From a virus (taxonomy: Duplodnaviria > Caudoviricetes): a DNA stretch of 52,224 nucleotides. This document shows positions 2,087-24,348 of the stretch, piece by piece. How positions within the stretch are numbered: the stretch's first letter is position 1; each line of letters starts with the position of its first letter. The translations under genes were made by a program, and so were the position numbers. Where the stretch lies: the IMG/VR virus record IMGVR_UViG_3300025674_000061, positions 1 through 52,224 of that record, one strand, 5' to 3'. The notes below the pieces were generated by a model, which was given only the letters and a program-made list of their open reading frames with translations, was not told the DNA's origin and searched no databases.

Positions 2087-3355
2087 TTATAGGATACATT
2101 GAGTACACTTATGTGCAAGTCCAGGCATGTGTTCGAAGTATCCAAAGTCAAACACGGCATCAAGTTCCCAGATAAACATTGGATGAGCGATAGGAGATGT
2201 GGTCCAGGTATCATCCATCTGCACCGCTCCCTCCAAAGTAAAGTCTTTGGACATACAGATCTTCATGAACTCAGATCCTTGGACTTGGTTCATGGATACT
2301 TCAGAAGCCCAGTCCCAGAAAGGAGTCTTGTGAATACTTCCTCTGTGATAATGAAAAGCAATAAAGTCTCGGAATGAATGTAAATATCTTCGATACTGAT
2401 CATTCAATTCATCTTCTTCCAGATCATAGTTAAAATAATCTATCGCCATAGTAGCGAGAGTTGTATATAAAGGAACTCCATATCCATGAAGAGGTTCGTA
2501 TGTATAAAGGGCATTTCCATTCCTTAAAATTTTTCCATCAACAAATTTCTTAGAGTGATAGTGAGGCCAAGAAAAAGATTTTACGTTGTCCCTCAACTTA
2601 TCATAATCAATATGAGCTCTAGGAATTCTATGTTCTCGTAAAAATCTATGCGAGTCCTTTATTGCTTCTTCTTCAGTAGTGACCTTATTATTGTACAGGT
2701 ATCCCCAACTACTCCTATTACTAACTGGGATGCCAAACATCCATCCATTTGGATGAGCGATGTGATAGGTCCATTCCCAATCGCCTGGTTTATCACAGAC
2801 GTTTATGATCACAGAATTAATTGCAATCGATTCTGGATCTTCATATGTGTCATCAAATTCCTTTGGTATGCCTCTACAATCTATGACGTAATTGTATTTG
2901 AGAACTTCATCACCAAGGGACACATAAGCACCAGCAGAGTCTTGCCAGATATCTTTAACTACACCATGGACTTCCTTGAACTTGTGTCCCCAATAATGTT
3001 TGAGTCTGGGAAGTACAAATGGTCTCCATGAATATGTGTCAGCGTGTACTCCTTGACAGGAAAGAGATAGATATCCATTGAGGCTCTCAGGAAAGTTCTG
3101 AGTCTCACACCAATCCACAAGAGCAACACCATGTTTGGTTGTGGCATTTATTTCCTTCATGTCAAAAGGAAATTGAAACTGAAGTGATCCCCTAAGTAAC
3201 TGAACAAAGTCATGCGAAAGACTCTCCCCCACACCAATGATGGGAGAATTTGGATCATGTATTAAATCAACCTCCAAATCTACAGGAGACCTTGAACACA
3301 TGACCATCGCGGAAACTAATCCGCCTGTTCCACTTCCGACTACAGCTACTTTCAT
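2087..3355 (-). CDS. Flavin-dependent (tryptophan halogenase/PrnA-like) halogenase
   Basis: GSGTGG FAD motif, IGVGES, conserved Lys in NATTKHG, GWMFGIP (variant of WxWxIP), EPLHGYG. Confidence 0.85.
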   Translation of the reverse strand: MKVAVVGSGTGGLVSAMVMCSRSPVDLEVDLIHDPNSPIIGVGESLSHDFVQLLRGSLQFQFPFDMKEINATTKHGVALVDWCETQNFPESLNGYLSLSCQGVHADTYSWRPFVLPRLKHYWGHKFKEVHGVVKDIWQDSAGAYVSLGDEVLKYNYVIDCRGIPKEFDDTYEDPESIAINSVIINVCDKPGDWEWTYHIAHPNGWMFGIPVSNRSSWGYLYNNKVTTEEEAIKDSHRFLREHRIPRAHIDYDKLRDNVKSFSWPHYHSKKFVDGKILRNGNALYTYEPLHGYGVPLYTTLATMAIDYFNYDLEEDELNDQYRRYLHSFRDFIAFHYHRGSIHKTPFWDWASEVSMNQVQGSEFMKICMSKDFTLEGAVQMDDTWTTSPIAHPMFIWELDAVFDFGYFEHMPGLAHKCTQCIL

Positions 3356-16600: not shown

Positions 16601-17187
16601 TCAATATCGTGCTTAGAACCAAAGTTTACAAGTCCAGTACCACTCATGTGACCAACTGGAGTCACATCAATCTTGGGTTCTTCAATTGCATCCCACATGT
16701 CCTGAACCTCAGGCCAACCAGGACCAATATCATCCAGAAGCATGATACCTTTCCAACCTTTCTCGTTCAAGAATTCCATCATCTCAACTTCTTGAACACC
16801 GTCATGGGGATCAACATCGATCATGATGATAGAAATGTTATCCCAATCAAGAGTTTCATCCTCACGGAAGTCTTGAATCTTGAAAGTGATATTCTCTTTC
16901 TTGATAGCAGAGCTAGCACCCTGTTCAACCAGATCATAACTGATAACTTGGTTCTTATCGTTGTAAGAAAGAGCAAGTGCAGAACCTCCTGTACGGGTTC
17001 CAACGTCAAGGATGGTGGTGTTTTCAAACTGACTGGAGAGCCATGCATAGAGACGATACTCGCTCTGTCCTGCAGTCAACCAGTCGTTAGGATTGATGGA
17101 TTGTTCCTCAAGAGCAGACACATCTAGTGCCCGCACTGCATCCTTATCAATTCGAATAGTCTTTTTAGTCAGTGTAGAATTAGGCAT
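16591..17187 (-). CDS. Class I SAM-dependent methyltransferase
   Basis: LDVGTRTGGS, IDVDPH, LDD. Confidence 0.8.
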   Translation of the reverse strand: MPNSTLTKKTIRIDKDAVRALDVSALEEQSINPNDWLTAGQSEYRLYAWLSSQFENTTILDVGTRTGGSALALSYNDKNQVISYDLVEQGASSAIKKENITFKIQDFREDETLDWDNISIIMIDVDPHDGVQEVEMMEFLNEKGWKGIMLLDDIGPGWPEVQDMWDAIEEPKIDVTPVGHMSGTGLVNFGSKHDIDWA

Positions 17188-18226
17188 TTACAAGTTCCTT
17201 AGATGTAGTTTCAGATTCCTTACGGGATTTAATTTGTTCAGAGATCCAGGCATAAGTGATACGAATGCCTTCCTCTAGAGATTGAGAATAATCCCAACCA
17301 AGTTTCTCACGGATGAGATCGTTATTGGAGTTACGTCCACGGACACCAAGAGGTGCATCTAGTTTGTGTCGTTTCTGAACCACTTTACCAGATACCTTAG
17401 CGGCAGTCTCAACCAGTTGGTTAATCGTTACCATTTCCTCAGAACCAATATTAACTGGTCCCATGAACTCTCCGTCCATCAGTCGTCGAGTCGCTTCAAT
17501 GCATTCATTAATGAACAGGAAGGAACGAGTTTGTAGACCGTCTCCCCACACCTCGATGGATCCACCTGTCTCTGGGAGGTAAGCGACTTTACGGCAGATT
17601 GCAGCTGGAGCTTTCTCCTTTCCACCTTCCCAGGTTCCTTCTGGTCCAAAGATATTATGATACCTAGCAACACGAACAGGGATCCCATAGTTACGATTGT
17701 AAGCAAGGAAGAGACGCTCAGAGAATAGTTTTTCCCATCCATACTCGGAGTCGGGGTTAGCTGGGTATGCGGATTCTTCACGGCAGTCAGGGTTGTCAGG
17801 ATCCAGTTGATTGTGTTCTGGGTACATGCAAGCAGAAGAACTATAGAAGATCTTCGTTGCATTTACATTATTAGTTTCATTATAATCTCTAACGGCATCC
17901 AATACGTTCAAGTTAATGGATGCGGAGTTGTGCATGATATCGGCGGAATGTTCATCTGTGAAGATGTATCCTGCTCCACCCATGTCAGCAGCAAACTGAT
18001 AAATCTCATCAAACGGTTCGGAATCAGGAGAGATGATGAGTTCCTTAACTCTAACAGCATCCCTCAGGTCAGCTTGAACAAAGTCATCTGCTGCAGATAC
18101 ACTGAACTCAGGGTACTTAATATCGACCCCACGAACCCAGTATCCTTCAGAACGAAGACGTTTTACCATGTGACTTCCAATGAACCCACCAGCACCCAGA
18201 ACGAGTGCAGTTTTACTATTTGCCAT
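17180..18226 (-). CDS. GDP-mannose 3,5-epimerase-like SDR
   Basis: GAGGFIG, AADMGGAGYI, SSACMYP, YGWEK, GGKEKAPAAICRK, GVRGRNSNN. Confidence 0.85.
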   Translation of the reverse strand: MANSKTALVLGAGGFIGSHMVKRLRSEGYWVRGVDIKYPEFSVSAADDFVQADLRDAVRVKELIISPDSEPFDEIYQFAADMGGAGYIFTDEHSADIMHNSASINLNVLDAVRDYNETNNVNATKIFYSSSACMYPEHNQLDPDNPDCREESAYPANPDSEYGWEKLFSERLFLAYNRNYGIPVRVARYHNIFGPEGTWEGGKEKAPAAICRKVAYLPETGGSIEVWGDGLQTRSFLFINECIEATRRLMDGEFMGPVNIGSEEMVTINQLVETAAKVSGKVVQKRHKLDAPLGVRGRNSNNDLIREKLGWDYSQSLEEGIRITYAWISEQIKSRKESETTSKELVNA

Positions 18227-18250
18227 AGTCTAGTTTTTTGACTGCGTTGA

Positions 18251-18258
18251 TATTTATT
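18251..18258 (-). promoter_or_regulatory. T4-type (gp55) late promoter heading the sugar operon
   Basis: AATAAATA about 25 nt upstream of the ATG at 18226. Confidence 0.7.
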
Positions 18259-18263
18259 ATAAT

Positions 18264-18289
18264 AAAAAAAGGGTATTTTGACAATACCC
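18264..18289 (-). terminator. Rho-independent terminator
   Basis: GGGTATT-GTCAA-AATACCC followed by T7. Confidence 0.8.
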
Positions 18290-18301
18290 ATTCCTTCGTA
18301 T

Positions 18302-18892
18302 CTATAGTGGTTGTTGTAAATTCAATGAATGAACCTGAACCTGTTGTGCAAGTAGGCCAATATCACATTGATACCATCCTGTAGCAATATACTTATCTTG
18401 CATAGGTGGATTTCCCCTATGTAAATGAGTAAATGACCCAGGCCAAATAACTACCTTACCCTTTTCGGGTTTAATTTTAGTACTTTGATATAAAAACTCT
18501 GTCTCTCCACCCTCTTCTACATCATTAAGATAGACCATCCATGCCAGTGTTCGAGTGCTTGTATTCCAATTCAAATCCTCACCATGAAAGACATGATATC
18601 CTTCAGTTGGTGCAGTTTTTTGGAGAAGTACCAAAGAACTGATGTAATTAAAATTGGAAAGATATGGATATTTTTTCGAATAATAAAGAAGACAACCGTT
18701 AACGGGGTCCATTAGATCTGCAGCTTCTCCAGGAGAGAATGCATTCAGACATACTTGTTTGTCATGTACATGTGATGCTTGTCTAGCATTCACATATGAA
18801 GAAGAGTCTATATAATCCACCAACCAGTCACAAAGTTCTGGATTTACAGCCTCTTTGAAGACTCCGATAAAATCGTTATAGATTGGTTCCAT
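18302..18892 (-). CDS. 2OG-Fe(II) oxygenase
   Basis: YHVFHGE, LAWMVYLNDVEEGGETEF, FTHLHRGNPP, KYIATGW. Confidence 0.92.
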   Translation of the reverse strand: MEPIYNDFIGVFKEAVNPELCDWLVDYIDSSSYVNARQASHVHDKQVCLNAFSPGEAADLMDPVNGCLLYYSKKYPYLSNFNYISSLVLLQKTAPTEGYHVFHGEDLNWNTSTRTLAWMVYLNDVEEGGETEFLYQSTKIKPEKGKVVIWPGSFTHLHRGNPPMQDKYIATGWYQCDIGLLAQQVQVHSLNLQQPL

Positions 18893-18907
18893 GTTTTCTG
18901 TAGGTTT

Positions 18908-18996
18908 GCAGGCTCGCCACCAATTCTTTGACTGGAAATTGGAAACCAGGCGGGGTTACCCCATCCGCACCACTTTGTTTTAGGAACAAAGAAACC
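18908..18996 (-). ncRNA. manA-like RNA, 3' half (modules C and D)
   Basis: Two paralogous units, GGTTT-CTTTGTT-CCTAA-AACAAAG-TGGTGCGG and GGTTT-CCAATT-TCCAGTCAAAG-AATTGG-TGGCGAG, separated by GGGG-TAA-CCCC. Matches my memory of cyanophage manA RNA. Confidence 0.7.
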
Positions 18997-19248
18997 TTAC
19001 CAAAAATCCAAAGGACATTTGGATGCGCTGAATCGCACTTTGTTTGAAAGATAACATCCGCAATCTGTACATCTATGTTCTACTTCATCATAAAACTGAC
19101 AGGTAGAACAAATTTGCAACCTAGCATCTTTCACATGATCAGGAACAAGTAAGTCACCAGTACTTACAAACTCTTTGATTATACCAAAAGCTGTTTTTGT
19201 TAGGTTGGCCATCTGCTTAGAAGCGGATGGGTATTGTTGATCTTCCAT
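18997..19248 (-). CDS. Small Cys-rich (CxxC..CxxCGC..CP) protein, DUF6171-like
   Basis: Start trimmed to MEDQQY; RLQICSTC...CTDCGC...SKCPLDFW. Confidence 0.75.
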   Translation of the reverse strand: MEDQQYPSASKQMANLTKTAFGIIKEFVSTGDLLVPDHVKDARLQICSTCQFYDEVEHRCTDCGCYLSNKVRFSASKCPLDFW

Positions 19249-19257
19249 AAGATTAAA

Positions 19258-19303
19258 GGGACACACTCCCGACCAGGGCACACTTAACGTCTGTCCGAGA
19301 CAT
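19258..19303 (-). ncRNA. manA-like RNA, module B
   Basis: Hairpin ATGTCT-CGGAC-AGACGT, then TAA, then GTGTGCCCTGGTC, then hairpin GGGA-GTGTG-TCCC. Confidence 0.6.
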
Positions 19304-19931
19304 GTACAAGATTTGTTCCATTCCCAATCTCCCCATAAACAAAGTAATTAAAAGCAATGGAGTACCTAGGTTCATCAGTTTCGGAGGCTGGAACCATGTG
19401 TGTTAGGTGGGAAGGAAACAAGAGTAACATATTAGTATTCACTCTCTTCAAATGAACTAATTCATTTTGAGCGGTTAACTCATCTAAATTAAATTCCCAA
19501 GCATCACTGGTCCAAGTAGGACCCATTCTCTTGAAAACAATTCCTGGCCCAGAATTGGGTGGAATATTTAGATAGTATACACCACTAAAGACACTGTTTG
19601 AATGATGATGTTCATGACAATAGTCATTCAAGTAGTGTCTGTTTGCCCATGAGTTAGTTCTCTTTACCGTAAGTTTTCTTGAAACTCGTAAGAAATCATG
19701 CACAAAAGCGTGCATATGATTATCTATGATAGTTGCAAGATTGGATAATGGATTGTGTGCAAGCACATCAAATACATCCAGATATTGTCCATTAGGATGA
19801 TCATGAATGTCAGTATCCGTAATCCAATCTAAATGTTCAACATAAGATTGGATTCTTGACCGTTCGTCATCAGAGATGTCTAGTTGGTCATGGTAAATTG
19901 GGGTTGGGAATAGTAATTGAACATCAGCCAT
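19284..19931 (-). CDS. Putative 2OG-Fe(II) oxygenase (TIGR02466-like)
   Basis: LFPTPIY, SWAN, HHHSNSVFSGVYYL, FPSHLTHMV, RYSIAFN. ATG at 19931 follows GGTGGAG. Confidence 0.88.
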   Translation of the reverse strand: MADVQLLFPTPIYHDQLDISDDERSRIQSYVEHLDWITDTDIHDHPNGQYLDVFDVLAHNPLSNLATIIDNHMHAFVHDFLRVSRKLTVKRTNSWANRHYLNDYCHEHHHSNSVFSGVYYLNIPPNSGPGIVFKRMGPTWTSDAWEFNLDELTAQNELVHLKRVNTNMLLLFPSHLTHMVPASETDEPRYSIAFNYFVYGEIGNGTNLVHVSDRR

Positions 19932-19969
19932 AGGCTCCACCAGGGTTTTTAACGACTCTCCATGTCGTA
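19926..19969 (-). ncRNA. manA-like RNA, module A
   Basis: Hairpin ACGAC-ATGGAGA-GTCGT, then TAA, then AAACCCTGGTGG, then hairpin AGCC-TAT-GGCT. Confidence 0.6.
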
Positions 19970-20200
19970 AGACACATCATCTTTGATATAACACGGTACA
20001 CGATCTGGATCTAACCATTTCGTATACTCAAAATCCTCCATAGCAGTGGTAAGTTGCATACCATTATCACAAAGATACATGTCACTGTATCGTTTGGTAT
20101 AAGAATCTGCCTTCTGAATACGATAGTCGGGGAACCCATTGTCTAGGGTTCCAACTTCGACATACCGATAGGGAAAACGTTCAAGAATAATCTTTGTCAA
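19949..20200 (-). CDS. Conserved cyanophage hypothetical protein
   Basis: ERFPYRYVE...PDYRIQK...DMYLCDNGMQ; coupled to the upstream ORF. Confidence 0.8.
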   Translation of the reverse strand: MTKIILERFPYRYVEVGTLDNGFPDYRIQKADSYTKRYSDMYLCDNGMQLTTAMEDFEYTKWLDPDRVPCYIKDDVSYDMESR

Positions 20201-20424
20201 GCGAGTACTCCTTCAGTTTGAAGATCAGCTGCAATCAAATCAAGGACGAGTTCATAATCATCGTCAGGATCATTATAAAACTGAACTCCTTGATTGCGGT
20301 AATACTTCACAATCTTTTTGTAAATCTTAGGGTGGCGGAGGTCTAGATCCGTTTCCCGATTCACTGCGGATTGCAGAAGACTCAAATTGGTCTTGAACTT
20401 AGAAACAAACGCCGAGTTAGACAT
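20197..20424 (-). CDS. Hypothetical protein
   Basis: ORF track; lies downstream of a sigma70 promoter. Confidence 0.75.
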   Translation of the reverse strand: MSNSAFVSKFKTNLSLLQSAVNRETDLDLRHPKIYKKIVKYYRNQGVQFYNDPDDDYELVLDLIAADLQTEGVLA

Positions 20425-20447
20425 TGATCGTTGTGTTGAACAGGTTT

Positions 20448-20476
20448 ATTGTACGATGGAATGAGTCGGATGTCAA
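20448..20476 (-). promoter_or_regulatory. Sigma70-type promoter
   Basis: TTGACA-17-TACAAT. Confidence 0.8.
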
Positions 20477-20691
20477 GATCCTTCTCCAGTCTGATGATAC
20501 ATTTCAAAGTATGTATCATCAAGTTCAGAAACTAGTCCAGAATCAATAGATGCTTTGATGACTCCAGCATTAGGAACCATCATAACATCCTTACCATCTG
20601 GAGTCATGATATGAAATGATTTTCCTTGTTCTACTTGATCGAAGATGTCATCAAAGTTATCTTCAAGGTACTGCAAAGTAATCTTTTCCAT
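20473..20691 (-). CDS. Phd/YefM-fold-like small protein
   Basis: Start trimmed to MEKITLQYLEDNFDDIFDQVEQGKSFHIMTPDGKDVMMVP, because the ORF-track extension runs through tRNA-Pro. Confidence 0.6.
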   Translation of the reverse strand: MEKITLQYLEDNFDDIFDQVEQGKSFHIMTPDGKDVMMVPNAGVIKASIDSGLVSELDDTYFEMYHQTGEGS

Positions 20692-20708: not shown

Positions 20709-20782
20709 TCGGAATGATAGGATTCGAACCTACGGCCACCCGCTCCCAAAGCGGGTGCTCTACCAAACTGAGCTACATTCCG
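20709..20782 (-). tRNA. tRNA-Pro(TGG)
   Basis: Cloverleaf; anticodon arm CCCGC-TTTGGGA-GCGGG; GTTCGAAT. Confidence 0.96.
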
Positions 20783-20825: not shown

Positions 20826-21488
20826 TTAACCGATTGGGGCTGAGTTTACTTTTTGATTGGACCAATTCCCAGATCCATCATCGATGGGTTTTGGTGCCGA
20901 GAGATCGATAGTAGAAGACTTCATAGATCCAGCAGCTTGAATTTCATTAACCTTCTTCAAATAAGCGATAACACTTTCGGGAGTGCTTTCGATATATGGA
21001 TCATCTTCAGCATTATGATGAGTGGAAGGATTAGCAGACTCTTCCATGAAGACGTGAGTTACAATAAGATCTTCTACATGAATAGCATATCTCCAAGATC
21101 TTAAACCAAGTCCTTTATTATACTTTTTGACAAGGAATCCTTCTGGTTCTGCAATACCAGAGACTTCATTATGTCTTGCAGTGAAAGCAGCATTACCATC
21201 ACAAAGATACTTTACGTTTTGAACCTTTAGTTGTTTCCACCAAGCCTTCATAACAAAAGGATCGTTGATAGAAAGACAGTATACTTCATCAATACCAAGT
21301 GCCTTGATATCATCATATGCTTCATCAAAGTCAGGAACTTGACTGTTGCTGCAGGTGGGAGTGAATGCACCTGGGATACAGAAAATGATTACATTTTTGC
21401 CCCTAAGAGTATCATGGAGTGCTTCTCTCTTTAGGGTATTCTTACTGTTGAGAGAGAATAACTCAGCATTAGGTAGTTGATAAGCCAT
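20826..21488 (-). CDS. Peroxiredoxin (Prx5/type II)
   Basis: PGAFTPTCS, SINDPFVMKAW, DGN, GLRSWRYA. Confidence 0.9.
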   Translation of the reverse strand: MAYQLPNAELFSLNSKNTLKREALHDTLRGKNVIIFCIPGAFTPTCSNSQVPDFDEAYDDIKALGIDEVYCLSINDPFVMKAWWKQLKVQNVKYLCDGNAAFTARHNEVSGIAEPEGFLVKKYNKGLGLRSWRYAIHVEDLIVTHVFMEESANPSTHHNAEDDPYIESTPESVIAYLKKVNEIQAAGSMKSSTIDLSAPKPIDDGSGNWSNQKVNSAPIG

Positions 21489-22880: not shown

Positions 22881-22952
22881 TGGGAGATACAAGGATCGAA
22901 CTTGTGACAATCTCGGTGTAAACGAGGTGCTCTACCGCTGAGCTAATCTCCC
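22881..22952 (-). tRNA. tRNA-Val(TAC)
   Basis: Cloverleaf; anticodon loop TTTACAC. Confidence 0.95.
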
Positions 22953-22955
22953 AAA

Positions 22956-23028
22956 CTCCTCCACCTGGGCTCGAACCAGGGACATTCTGATTAACAGTCA
23001 GACGCTCTACCGACTGAGCTATAGAGGA
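22956..23028 (-). tRNA. tRNA-Asn(GTT)
   Basis: Cloverleaf; anticodon loop CTGTTAA. Confidence 0.96.
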
Positions 23029-23055
23029 ATGGGTGTTTCTATTATAACACAGAAA

Positions 23056-23337
23056 CTAATCTTGTGGAAGCTCTTCTGGATTTTCTAACTCTAACTCATG
23101 AATTAGAGGAAGACATTCTTCTTGTGCAAGGTATGCTGCAGCTTTATAAAGATCTTCTTGATCCCAAACTTTATTTTTGTTTGCTTCCATCAAGATGTCG
23201 GGATCATCATAACATAGTGATGGAAGTTCGTCAAATGTAAATGGGATGTAATTTATAAAGTACATCTTAACGAGCAAGGTTTCCTCATAAGTCTCATACC
23301 AACAATAAGATGTTTGGATCCTGTACTTCTGGGACAT
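23056..23337 (-). CDS. Conserved cyanophage hypothetical protein
   Basis: Start trimmed to MSQKYRIQTSYCWY; VKMYFIN.IPFTFDE. Confidence 0.75.
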   Translation of the reverse strand: MSQKYRIQTSYCWYETYEETLLVKMYFINYIPFTFDELPSLCYDDPDILMEANKNKVWDQEDLYKAAAYLAQEECLPLIHELELENPEELPQD

Positions 23338-23373
23338 GTCTCGTTTTCCTGACACATTACTATTTAACCAGTA

Positions 23374-23445
23374 AGCGGGTGATCGGATTCGAACCGACGA
23401 CATTCAGCTTGGAAGGCTGACGTTCTACCACTGAACTACACCCGC
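23374..23445 (-). tRNA. tRNA-Gly(TCC)
   Basis: Cloverleaf; anticodon loop CTTCCAA. Confidence 0.96.
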
Positions 23446-23976
23446 ACCTAAAGATCCTAGATAAGCAATATTACCTGCCACCATAAATCTATTGTCTACA
23501 GGACATGGTTCTACTTTATGTATAAGATGTCCAGCAAATATAACCAGTTGACCTGATTCAACTTGAATTTCATTCCCATCAATAATGATTGGGGAACTTC
23601 CTTCTGGGCAGTTTACATAATATGCAAAAGACATTGCATAAGGCCAGTGGTTGTGTTCCATGGCGGAAGCACCTTTATTATACCACATTCCCCAGTAATC
23701 TGCAATATCAAAATTTCTATGCCAGTCTGGAGAACCAAAGTATGCACTATTAGATCCTTGTGCCAATTTATTTGCACAAGAAACTAGATTAGAACGAATC
23801 CAATCAAATAGTATATCCAATTCTTCAACTGGAGATTCTTCAAGTCTTGTGCAATAGAAAGGAGTTCTAGAAGTTCCTGTTGGAAGTGTAAGATAACTAT
23901 CAGATTTAATCCATTCTATTAGTCCAGGATTAATCTGATCTGCTTTTTCAAATTGGGTTGAAAGAATCGCAAACAT
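23425..23976 (-). CDS. Putative 2OG-Fe(II) oxygenase
   Basis: WGMWY, HNH, YYVNCPEGSSP, FAGHLIHKV, RFMVAGN. Confidence 0.85.
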   Translation of the reverse strand: MFAILSTQFEKADQINPGLIEWIKSDSYLTLPTGTSRTPFYCTRLEESPVEELDILFDWIRSNLVSCANKLAQGSNSAYFGSPDWHRNFDIADYWGMWYNKGASAMEHNHWPYAMSFAYYVNCPEGSSPIIIDGNEIQVESGQLVIFAGHLIHKVEPCPVDNRFMVAGNIAYLGSLGAGVVQW

Positions 23977-23977
23977 A

Positions 23978-24059
23978 TGTCGATGAAAGGACTTGAACCT
24001 TCATGAGTTGCCTCACTGGAACCTAAACCCAGCGCGTATACCAATTCCGCCACATCGAC
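23978..24059 (-). tRNA. tRNA-Leu(TAG)
   Basis: Cloverleaf with long variable arm; anticodon loop TTTAGGT. Confidence 0.95.
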
Positions 24060-24064
24060 GAAGG

Positions 24065-24138
24065 CGACTCAAGTAGGATTCGAACCTACGACCGACTGCT
24101 TAGAAGGCAGTTGCTCTATCCAGCTGAGCTATTGAGTC
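24065..24138 (-). tRNA. tRNA-Arg(TCT)
   Basis: Cloverleaf; anticodon loop CTTCTAA. Confidence 0.96.
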
Positions 24139-24146
24139 ATGGGACA

Positions 24147-24175
24147 ATCATACCAGAGACTGGTCAGATTGTCAA
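24147..24175 (-). promoter_or_regulatory. Sigma70-type promoter between tRNA-Ser and tRNA-Arg
   Basis: TTGACA-17-TATGAT. Confidence 0.8.
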
Positions 24176-24262
24176 CGGAGAGTGAGAGATTCGAACTCTC
24201 GAAGGAGTTACCCCCTTACAGCATTTCCAGTGCTGCGCCATCGTCCACTCGGCCAACTCTCC
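24176..24262 (-). tRNA. tRNA-Ser(GGA)
   Basis: Long variable arm; anticodon loop CTGGAAA. Confidence 0.95.
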
Positions 24263-24266
24263 AAGG

Positions 24267-24348
24267 TGGGCAGGGAGGGATTTGAACCCCCGTAGGCAGA
24301 GCCAGCGGATTTACAGTCCGCCTCCATTAACCACTCGGACACCTACCC
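24267..24348 (-). tRNA. tRNA-Tyr(GTA)
   Basis: Variable arm; anticodon loop CTGTAAA. Confidence 0.96.

Follow-up and report, generated by a model that had tools for sequence, protein, structure and literature searches.

The wcaG motif (Rfam RF01761) was reported in 2010 as a riboswitch candidate from marine metagenomes and T4-like cyanophages, where exopolysaccharide and high-light genes follow it (Weinberg et al., 2010; PMC2864571). The passages of the wcaG literature that concern the motif report neither a ligand nor a mechanism (PMC2864571, PMC9964418, PMC9602691). T4-type phages additionally carry PeSLs (promoter-early stem-loops), mobile regulatory cassettes that join an early sigma-70-type promoter to a terminator-like stem-loop and that, according to the sections of the source dealing with them, occur in series through hyperplastic regions (PMC4122927). 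Here, we analyze a 52,224-nt stretch of viral DNA (IMG/VR record IMGVR_UViG_3300025674_000061, positions 1 to 52,224; in the following called the window), which is a T4-like cyanomyovirus fragment rated 26% complete and has Synechococcus phages as its nearest named relatives. Upstream of a wcaG RNA in the window lie two short elements, modules A and B, and judged from their sequence these are two copies of a conserved, strand-specific RNA module of ~45 nt that matches no Rfam family. Neither such units nor tandem arrays of them are described in the portions of the wcaG, PeSL and cyanophage-genome literature considered here (including PMC3037559), alignment supplements aside, where Weinberg et al. 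(2010) may show flanking modules or tandem wcaG copies.

Copies of the module, which we call units when speaking of all genomes, share one layout: a hairpin of 4-5 bp with a YGG loop (hairpin 1), 0-2 bases, UAA, a spacer of 5-8 nt, CUGGU and a second hairpin (hairpin 2). CUGGU is invariant and is followed by GGAG(U/C)C or CGG(G/U), and hairpin 2 takes the form GGAGYC..GRC or GGGA..UCCC. In the window, all genes around the modules are carried by the minus strand, as are the modules themselves. Module A (19926..19973) is of the GGAG subtype. Its hairpin 1 pairs ACGAC (19968-19964) with GUCGU (19956-19952) around the loop AUGGAGA and is followed by UAA at 19951-19949, the spacer AAACC, the core CUGGUGGAG at 19943-19935 and hairpin 2, AGCC-UAU-GGCU (19936-19926, with AGCC at 19936-19933 and GGCU at 19929-26); the predicted loop-to-spacer pair is U19962-A19946. 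Module B (19258..19308) is of the CGGGA subtype, with AUGUCU (19303-19298) paired to AGACGU (19292-19287) around the loop CGGAC, UAA at 19286-19284, the spacer GUGUGCC, the core CUGGUCGGG at 19276-19268, hairpin 2 as GGGA-GUGUG-UCCC (19270-19258) and the predicted loop-to-spacer pairs C19297-G19279 and G19296-U19280. A 35-nt stretch of module B is 97% identical in phage DSL-LC03. Genes separate both modules from the wcaG RNA, which lies ~950 nt downstream of A and ~270 nt downstream of B.

The first-pass annotation of this DNA had pointed out the geometry correctly: two upstream genes end on the TAA behind hairpin 1 (p83 in module A, an oxygenase in module B), GGUGGAG lies at 19941-19935 of module A, and the ATG of the next gene (19931-19929) lies inside AGCC-UAU-GGCU. 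It had also noted that the TAA of a third gene (18999-18997) adjoins an element called module C, and this TAA forms the first three positions of the wcaG match described here. The same annotation had treated A, B and C as one kind of module, which holds for A and B as one family and fails for module C, a full-length wcaG RNA (18906..18999, minus strand; 96.3 bits over model positions 1-98). This match exceeds the gathering threshold of 42 bits for a model with the stems P1, P2 and P3. An Rfam scan of 18700-20300 at E <= 10 gave nothing at A or B, neither wcaG nor preQ1 classes, and an nhmmer search with a profile made from the wcaG copies of the related loci matched only C in the window (L001 in our numbering).

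That the modules are repeated elements at gene boundaries, as first proposed, is confirmed by covariance-model scores. Two sets of sequences were used, namely 80 IMG/VR loci that encode a relative of p83, many of which hold one to three units downstream of that gene (set 1), and 80 further contigs retrieved by a CGGGA-type sequence pattern with no hairpin condition (set 2). Over both sets, 201 units were counted in 164 related contigs, of which 163 were unique in the sense of non-identical sequences, not of independent lineages. Model R1 was built from 51 unique units, A and B among them (alignment A1), and model R2 from 68 units of other contigs only, with A and B excluded (alignment A4). On both strands of the 52 kb, R1 scored A at 46.3 and B at 41.6 bits, with the next best match at 14.5 bits. 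R2 placed B first in the window (39.1 bits, E 1.7e-11) and A second (12.5 bits, E 0.017), followed by a match at 7.9 bits; A is of the other core subtype.

The runner-up of both models (14.5 bits with R1, 7.9 bits with R2) is one weak partial match at 2365-2384 on the plus strand, which consists of a hairpin and UAAA only, lies opposite to the genes and is probably due to chance. A repeat search in 18200-20500 did not detect the modules because A and B are too dissimilar. The pattern CTGGTSGKR was discarded as a module signal: it has 9 matches in the window against 2.06 expected, only one of which is a module while the rest are coding sequence. Comparison of the unit by eye with the sigma-70 -10 box, CTAAATA and the E. 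coli Chi sequence gave no candidate that fits the whole family.

The evidence for a conserved fold comes from covariation. Hairpin 1 is found in 59/60 units that had been chosen by the UAA..CUGGU anchor alone, compared with 1850/5000 control TAA sites under the same rule, and RNAalifold finds it unaided. In alignment A4, the hairpin 1 pair 7-21 occurs as AU32/CG9/UA8/GC3 and the pair 9-19 as UA44/AU18/CG4. The covariation score of this alignment is 0.350 against 0.090 for shuffled alignments (0/500 reach the observed value), sliding the partners gives at most 0.100, and stem covariation in the set 1 alignment (A1) presents a similar picture. Additionally, the base 5' of the loop GG pairs with the base at position -3 from CUGGU. 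This contact is C-G in 52 and U-A in 14 units of A4 and C-G in 32 and U-A in 18 units of A1, that is in 66/68 and 50/51 rows or 116/119 overall, and C-A or U-G are not seen in those columns. The three departing rows are L110, which is not a unit, L149, with C opposite A, and L063, which by eye reads U-G after an alignment shift. Fisher's test gives p ~1e-14 per alignment, uncorrected for relatedness, a value that overstates independence because the 119 units are related sequences. The better argument is that, in at least three backgrounds, modules differ by a clean Y/R double change and by nothing else. Where the spacer measures 7-8 nt, one or two further pairs come next, most of them G-U or G-C. 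From these sequence patterns, a small H-type pseudoknot with UAA in an A-rich linker is the most likely fold of the module.

The units are tied closely to the wcaG RNA. They are found on the coding strand only, in 96/96 R1 matches at E <= 0.1 over 83 loci and in 121/121 nhmmer matches over the 80 loci of set 2. Strong R1 matches number two in G001, a record of 239 kb rated 100% complete, and two in Sf-FS3 (216 kb, deposited as a complete genome), all at the locus that extends from p75/p83 to wcaG; in S-SSM7 and ACG-2014d, neither units nor a wcaG RNA were found. Thus, among the records compared, the two with units have a wcaG RNA and the two that lack units also lack the wcaG RNA, and the units are not a genome-wide junction signal. 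What follows a unit was evaluable for 152 unique units: a wcaG-like element directly in 67, an ORF (open reading frame) start within 80 nt in 42, another unit in 27, and something else, tRNA (transfer RNA) genes included, in 16. A wcaG-like match, a term that takes in partial and divergent copies matched by nhmmer, lies downstream in 106/125 loci. Most relatives have one to three gene-free modules in a row between p75/p83 and one or two wcaG-type RNAs, and the wcaG-type RNAs behind such arrays precede sugar-nucleotide, 2OG (2-oxoglutarate)-oxygenase, hli or tRNA genes.

Named phages show the same arrangement, as isolates DSL-LC03, Sf-CH11 and S-CAM1 carry a wcaG RNA of 84-104 bits after one or more units. 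In DSL-LC03 the order is a p75-like gene, two units, the wcaG RNA (103.7 bits), GDP-mannose dehydratase and fucose synthase; in Sf-CH11 a tryptophan halogenase that ends on the UAA of a unit is followed by the wcaG RNA and tRNA-Gly; and S-CAM1 has two units, the wcaG RNA and tRNA-Gly. A tRNA-like sequence behind a unit was also seen in contigs L103, L119 and L120. The deposited GDP-mannose 4,6-dehydratase of DSL-LC03 (L206, 2543-2648) starts at 2543 and reads through the wcaG RNA at 2551-2648, and its true start is probably further downstream. A separate observation is the word CTAAATA after the second unit in L008 (~3125-3140), L010, L012, L031, L056, L064, L073 and L078, where it is not part of the units. 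We take this to be the late-promoter word of cyanomyoviruses, in which case the small ORF that comes next would have a late promoter to itself.

Compared with the wcaG RNA, the units share the phage lineage and the locus, where module C is a full member of the wcaG family and units usually abut a wcaG-type RNA. Conserved words are also common to both: UAA(A) within a hairpin or next to one, then (C/G)UGGUSSGR and then a G-rich/C-rich stem. By inspection, the grammar of the arrays can be written as hairpin, (C/G)UGGUSSGR and stem, with the canonical wcaG RNA as the largest arrangement. In two records, a stretch that bears a unit scores as a weak full-length wcaG match. In G001, the stretch with the first unit is a full-length match below threshold (27 bits) ahead of the canonical match (72.5 bits), the start of which overlaps the second unit. 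However, A and B have no Rfam match, a unit measures ~45 nt against 98 for wcaG, and in place of P1 it has a separate hairpin with a YGG loop that pairs with the spacer. Neither P3 nor the 3' GUGGCGAGCC box is present in solo units, to which A and B belong, and, unlike the wcaG RNA, units come one to three per locus and coding genes run into them.

The preQ1-I pseudoknot riboswitch offers a second likeness in its short hairpin, A-rich tail and 3' segment that pairs with the loop, set directly before a ribosome-binding region. The module differs in having no sequence or Rfam match to this class, a second stem of only 1-3 bp, and an invariant CUGGU and second hairpin that follow. The likeness is one of possible working, and no membership is claimed. 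The GGA in the hairpin loops is also reminiscent of CsrA-type binding sites.

On balance, we consider it somewhat more probable than its opposite that the modules are RNA elements of the wcaG leader region which act in cis on the transcript. We put this explanation first because the invariant single-stranded words, the covarying stem and, above all, the covarying contact between loop and spacer mark selection on a fold, and the tight association with wcaG-type RNAs indicates a role in a shared leader. Family membership, covariation, distribution and the variable cargo are what we observe, and from there we infer action at the RNA level and its nature. The modules could be small folds that bind a protein or a ligand and set the translation or stability of the sequence downstream, as is thought for the wcaG RNA. 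ORFs that adjoin a module would run on to the first in-frame stop, often the invariant UAA, and accessory genes have been gained, lost and exchanged repeatedly between such short conserved repeats. Since the modules are short conserved repeats, gene exchange would arise as a consequence and not from a site-specific cassette system.

Several points weigh against a cis-acting RNA. The folding energies of the modules are no better than those of shuffles, with z-scores of +0.14 for A, +0.21 for B and -0.35 for C and a range of -0.35 to +2.1 when two relatives are included. The second stem of the pseudoknot is only 1-3 bp long and depends mainly on one covarying pair in related units, and covariation of the hairpin fits single-stranded DNA as well. 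All genes of the region share one strand, hence the strand bias cannot separate RNA from DNA roles. The four libraries with an RNA label provide contigs, which are not proof of transcription, and DNA may have been carried over. The reassorted unit halves and the five- to six-fold enrichment of breakpoints described below fit a role in recombination equally well. Finally, A and B are separated from the wcaG RNA by genes and may be relics with no role of their own.

The strongest rival is that the modules are selected mainly as recombination junctions at which the homologous-recombination machinery of the phage would swap, insert or delete accessory genes between co-infecting phages, in the manner of the PeSLs of T4-type coliphages or, as the first-pass annotation had it, of integrons, which we regard as unlikely though worth serious attention. 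The slots of relatives do hold different cargo between fixed modules. Among 100 arrays, defined as a unit with a downstream wcaG-like element, 23 have one ORF of at least 60 codons and 11 have two, which is the type of the window; these 34 arrays together carry 45 ORFs of 13 families. ORFs were called crudely here, by greedy choice of the longest plus-strand ORF of at least 35-60 codons. The slot behind p83 and the first unit holds a 2OG oxygenase in some loci (94% identical to that of the window in L005, ~36% in L053, L055 and L061), a mannose-6-phosphate-isomerase-type cupin that ends on the UAA of the next unit in L045, two unknown ORFs in L024, L026 and L032, and nothing in L007, L008, L011, L014, DSL-LC03 and others. 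The units themselves are mosaic: all four combinations of two hairpin/spacer types with two core types exist, hence exchange has occurred at or near CUGGU, and in five pairs of units the 5' halves are nearly identical and the 3' halves unlike. Internal ends of long matches of at least 85% identity fall within 45 nt of CUGGU in 26/260 cases on the 3' side and 30/247 on the 5' side, compared with 2.0% at random.

Assembly and comparison with the closest contig, L005, add to this picture. In four runs labelled as metatranscriptomic, of which only branch points were used as depth cannot rank genes (658 vs 179 across the wcaG RNA in X4), contigs branch at 19977, the 5' edge of A, towards a variant whose p83 ends with no module, as in L058, and at 18996, the 5' edge of the wcaG RNA, towards one in which a unit is joined directly to the wcaG RNA, as in L053. 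The oxygenase downstream of the wcaG RNA (18302..18892) is swapped gene-precisely relative to L005, with 26-40 of 50 columns identical inside the gene and 43-49 of 50 in the flanks. Relative to L005, the peroxiredoxin-like gene at 20826-21488 on the minus strand is another mosaic patch of gene size in this region, ~50-80% identical between flanks of > 90%.

Even so, the remaining 66 of the 100 arrays hold no ORF, and cargo families also occur where units are missing, e.g., in S-SSM7, L065 and L068. Whole genomes that were searched have only two strong copies at a single locus, and a promoter and terminator scan of 18200-20500 found none in 19258-19308 (B) or 19926-19973 (A). Selection on a fold would account for UAA being invariant and for covariation both in the stem and between loop and spacer, features not expected of a mere patch of homology. 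Edges of conserved islands yield breakpoints under any mechanism, and the pattern of cargo and breakpoints is also expected from any pair of conserved islands around a variable stretch. Recombination is likely as a side effect of repeated conserved words.

The described systems behind this rival fit only in part. Integron attC sites resemble the modules in being structured repeats in one orientation that lie 3' of promoter-less cargo ORFs, sometimes over the stop. Unlike these sites, the module has no long imperfect palindrome, its hairpin is 4-5 bp, and the rest is conserved on one strand; and unlike in an integron, most arrays are empty and there is neither a platform of attI plus promoter nor a tyrosine recombinase. 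A search for PF00589 at E <= 0.01 found none in the window (26% of the genome), G001 or Sf-FS3, whereas the control search was positive in 14/14 reference genomes. Therefore, of the earlier proposal of recombination junctions in an integron-like array, the variable cargo and the reassorted halves stand and the integron-like array does not, given the missing recombinase, the two strong copies at one locus and the empty arrays.

PeSLs come closer. Like the modules, they are short stem-loop repeats in a hyperplastic region with flanking ORFs that differ between close relatives, as far as the relevant parts of the two sources go (PMC2839356, PMC4122927). No PeSL of a cyanophage is reported in the literature considered here: they were judged unlikely in cyanophage S-PM2 (PMC4503421), and the term 'cyano' does not appear in the portions of PMC4122927 that bear on them. 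The modules have neither the promoter nor the terminator-like stem-loop that a PeSL joins, and they differ further in their two strong copies at one locus per genome, mostly ORF-free arrays and covariation of the fold typical of a functional RNA. Thus, the PeSL is the closest evolutionary analogue, although its defining promoter-plus-terminator and high copy number are not found in the modules.

Less probable again, and in our judgment improbable, is that the modules are punctuation for RNA processing or stability, with cleavage in the UAAA linker, hairpin 1 protecting the 3' end of the upstream RNA, and CUGGU and hairpin 2 protecting the 5' end downstream. If this were true, each cargo gene, wcaG leader or tRNA would get its own stability. 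Such punctuation would suit the position of upstream stops, which in nearly every type of junction lie 0-25 nt away from UAA, and the variety of what units precede, be it an ORF, a non-coding wcaG RNA or a tRNA gene. It would also suit an A-rich linker flanked by two structured parts and the placing of A and B within a single predicted transcription unit, where neither has its own promoter or terminator. However, contigs cannot show 5' or 3' ends, the loop-spacer pair would bury part of the linker, and processing alone hardly accounts for the 27/152 units in tandem with nothing in between.

The first-pass annotation had also read the stop codons and the ribosome-binding site with ATG as functions built into the modules. 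TAA is present in 162/163 unique units, the remaining one having TGA, and it is kept in 61/61 unique units with no ORF of at least 40 codons ending within 40 nt, 36 of which lie directly behind another unit. An ORF ends exactly on UAA at 53/102 unique junctions and in 7/18 upstream ORF families: p83 (34 of 49), p75 (9 of 12), a family of unknown function (4 of 12), the oxygenase (2 of 7), the cupin (1 of 2) and two other families (3 of 3). Of the 49 remaining junctions, most have the stop 5-25 nt ahead of UAA, within hairpin 1 or just before it, and in 11 the ORF continues past UAA. As UAA is kept where no ORF ends nearby and on-UAA ends make up only 53/102 junctions, UAA is a feature of the module that is used when the frame allows. 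In the window, the last six codons of p83 (YDMESR) and its stop lie in hairpin 1 and UAA of module A, and the last codons of the oxygenase (VSDRR) and its stop in hairpin 1 and UAA of module B. Protein tails encoded in this way are not conserved and are predicted to be disordered.

Starts are more scattered. An ORF begins anywhere from 0 to 80 nt from the core, 81/150 units have no start within 85 nt, and a start within 12 nt is found in only 4/51 GGAG-type units, module A of the window included. Units also stand ahead of non-coding wcaG RNA and, directly or by way of that RNA, of tRNA genes. In module A, the AGCC/GGCU stem is a regular hairpin 2, to which the gene contributes the 3' arm with its first codons. 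The start of this gene is placed at 19931 and not at the GTG at 19940, as the M-A-D start is kept in the ~36% identical homologue of L053 at a similar junction. From these comparisons, the stop codons and the ATG in the modules appear to be opportunistic by-products of genome compaction. Translational coupling, the first option of the first-pass annotation, in which a ribosome stopping on UAA would melt the fold and restart downstream with GGUGGAG as the Shine-Dalgarno (SD) sequence, could draw on the upstream stop in both A and B with the next ATG 17 and 35 nt on, on the many junctions that end on UAA, with the tryptophan halogenase of Sf-CH11 in addition, and on the ATG of the window oxygenase and of its L053 homologue in hairpin 2, but it is very improbable in view of the UAA kept in ORF-free units, the stops that miss UAA, the scattered starts, the GGAG of module A that ends only 3 nt before AUG, and SD-like 4-mers ahead of only 16/61 window genes.

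A mini-ORF of 7-8 codons (M-P-V-x-x-x-R-stop) runs through hairpin 1 onto UAA in L206 (2496-2519), L014, L011, L007, L068, L090 and L104, with a variant form in L077. It begins 12-13 nt behind the GGAG of the preceding unit and uses the same frame as the tail of the window oxygenase, and in DSL-LC03 it ends in the same five codons as that oxygenase. The mini-ORF may encode a leader peptide, may remain from a lost gene or may have arisen by chance. As a general feature it was rejected, since the tandem units of L008, L002, L067 and L021 have no in-frame ATG.

The genes of the locus follow on the minus strand in the order p75, p83, a 2OG-FeII_Oxy_5 oxygenase, a Cys-rich protein, the wcaG RNA, a 2OG-FeII_Oxy_3 oxygenase, a nucleotide-sugar epimerase and a methyltransferase. 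Upstream of p75 lies a sigma-70-like promoter match, TTGACA-17-TACAAT (20448..20476, minus strand), with 11/12 consensus positions; it is a consensus match only, and the number of such matches in the region is not above that of shuffles. It probably marks where a transcription unit starts that takes in both modules and the wcaG RNA. The locus usually opens with p75 (20197..20424, minus strand), a small conserved protein of phrog_552 that is predicted to be helical (predicted local distance difference test, pLDDT, 89.5) and for which a structural search gave no match. It is followed by p83 (19949..20200, minus strand; phrog_481), a small, highly conserved protein with its stop in module A. Among 23 sequences of p83, 39 columns are invariant, and the tails vary after ..CY(I/V)(K/R)D. 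Such conservation is unusual for a small phage ORF with no known function, and p83 or p75 flanks the array in most loci. The predicted fold of p83 has four strands and two helices (pLDDT 78, with residues 68-83 at pLDDT < 50); Foldseek found no match for it at E <= 0.001, and the best VIA Z was 5.0. We make no claim that p83 or p75 is an RNA-binding partner of the modules, as the structure searches were uninformative.

Cargo gene 1 (19284..19931, minus strand) encodes a 2OG-Fe(II) oxygenase (PF13759, 2OG-FeII_Oxy_5) that starts in hairpin 2 of module A. The product of cargo gene 2 (18997..19248, minus strand; phrog_13558) is small, Cys-rich and weakly matched by DUF6171. This gene begins with the ATG at 19248, 10 nt past hairpin 2 of module B, and homologues fill the equivalent slot in L002, L005, L113, L116 and L139. 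The second oxygenase, downstream of the wcaG RNA (18302..18892, minus strand), belongs to PF13640 (2OG-FeII_Oxy_3). Behind it, an NAD-dependent nucleotide-sugar epimerase/dehydratase (17180..18226, minus strand; PF01370 134 bits, PF16363 101 bits) represents the class after which the wcaG RNA is named. The 75-nt gap between second oxygenase and epimerase holds a composite (18256..18289, minus strand) of a terminator-like hairpin with a U run (18289-18271) and an overlapping sigma-70-like promoter, TTGTCA-17-TATAAT (18284-18256), which by its sequence is the probable end of the transcription unit and start of the epimerase operon. This composite resembles a PeSL, whereas modules A and B do not, and it forms the 3' boundary of the oxygenase swap relative to L005. 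Eight tRNA genes lie at 20709-20782 and 22881-24348 (minus strand), one of them just upstream of the p75 promoter match, and a PhotoRC-II RNA (RF01717, 80.2 bits), a known cis-regulatory motif of cyanophages, is found at 1901-1995 on the minus strand.

Collectively, our results describe a wcaG-associated RNA module that also marks cargo junctions and is neither integron-like nor PeSL-like. A bolder idea, which we offer as a speculation and hold to be doubtful, is that wcaG is the largest member of a modular RNA system in which pseudoknots that sense a ligand or a protein tile the leader and double as docking and exchange points for the loading, unloading and individual regulation of auxiliary metabolic genes in cyanomyoviruses, an array of gene cassettes defined by RNA and with no need of an integrase. 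For annotation, p83, p75, the oxygenase and other proteins have short C-terminal tails that amount to read-through into an RNA element and are not conserved protein, and at least one deposited gene start, that of the DSL-LC03 GDP-mannose dehydratase, overlaps a wcaG RNA. The wcaG RNA is usually preceded by one to three smaller, related modules that probably form pseudoknots, and divergent tandem wcaG copies also begin with such a module. The functional unit of wcaG may thus be longer and modular, which changes what to clone, probe and screen. The modules also pinpoint where small genes, among them those for 2OG oxygenases and a cupin, are gained and lost in a highly variable region of marine T4-like cyanophages, and they provide a testable handle on the shuffling of auxiliary metabolic genes in these phages.

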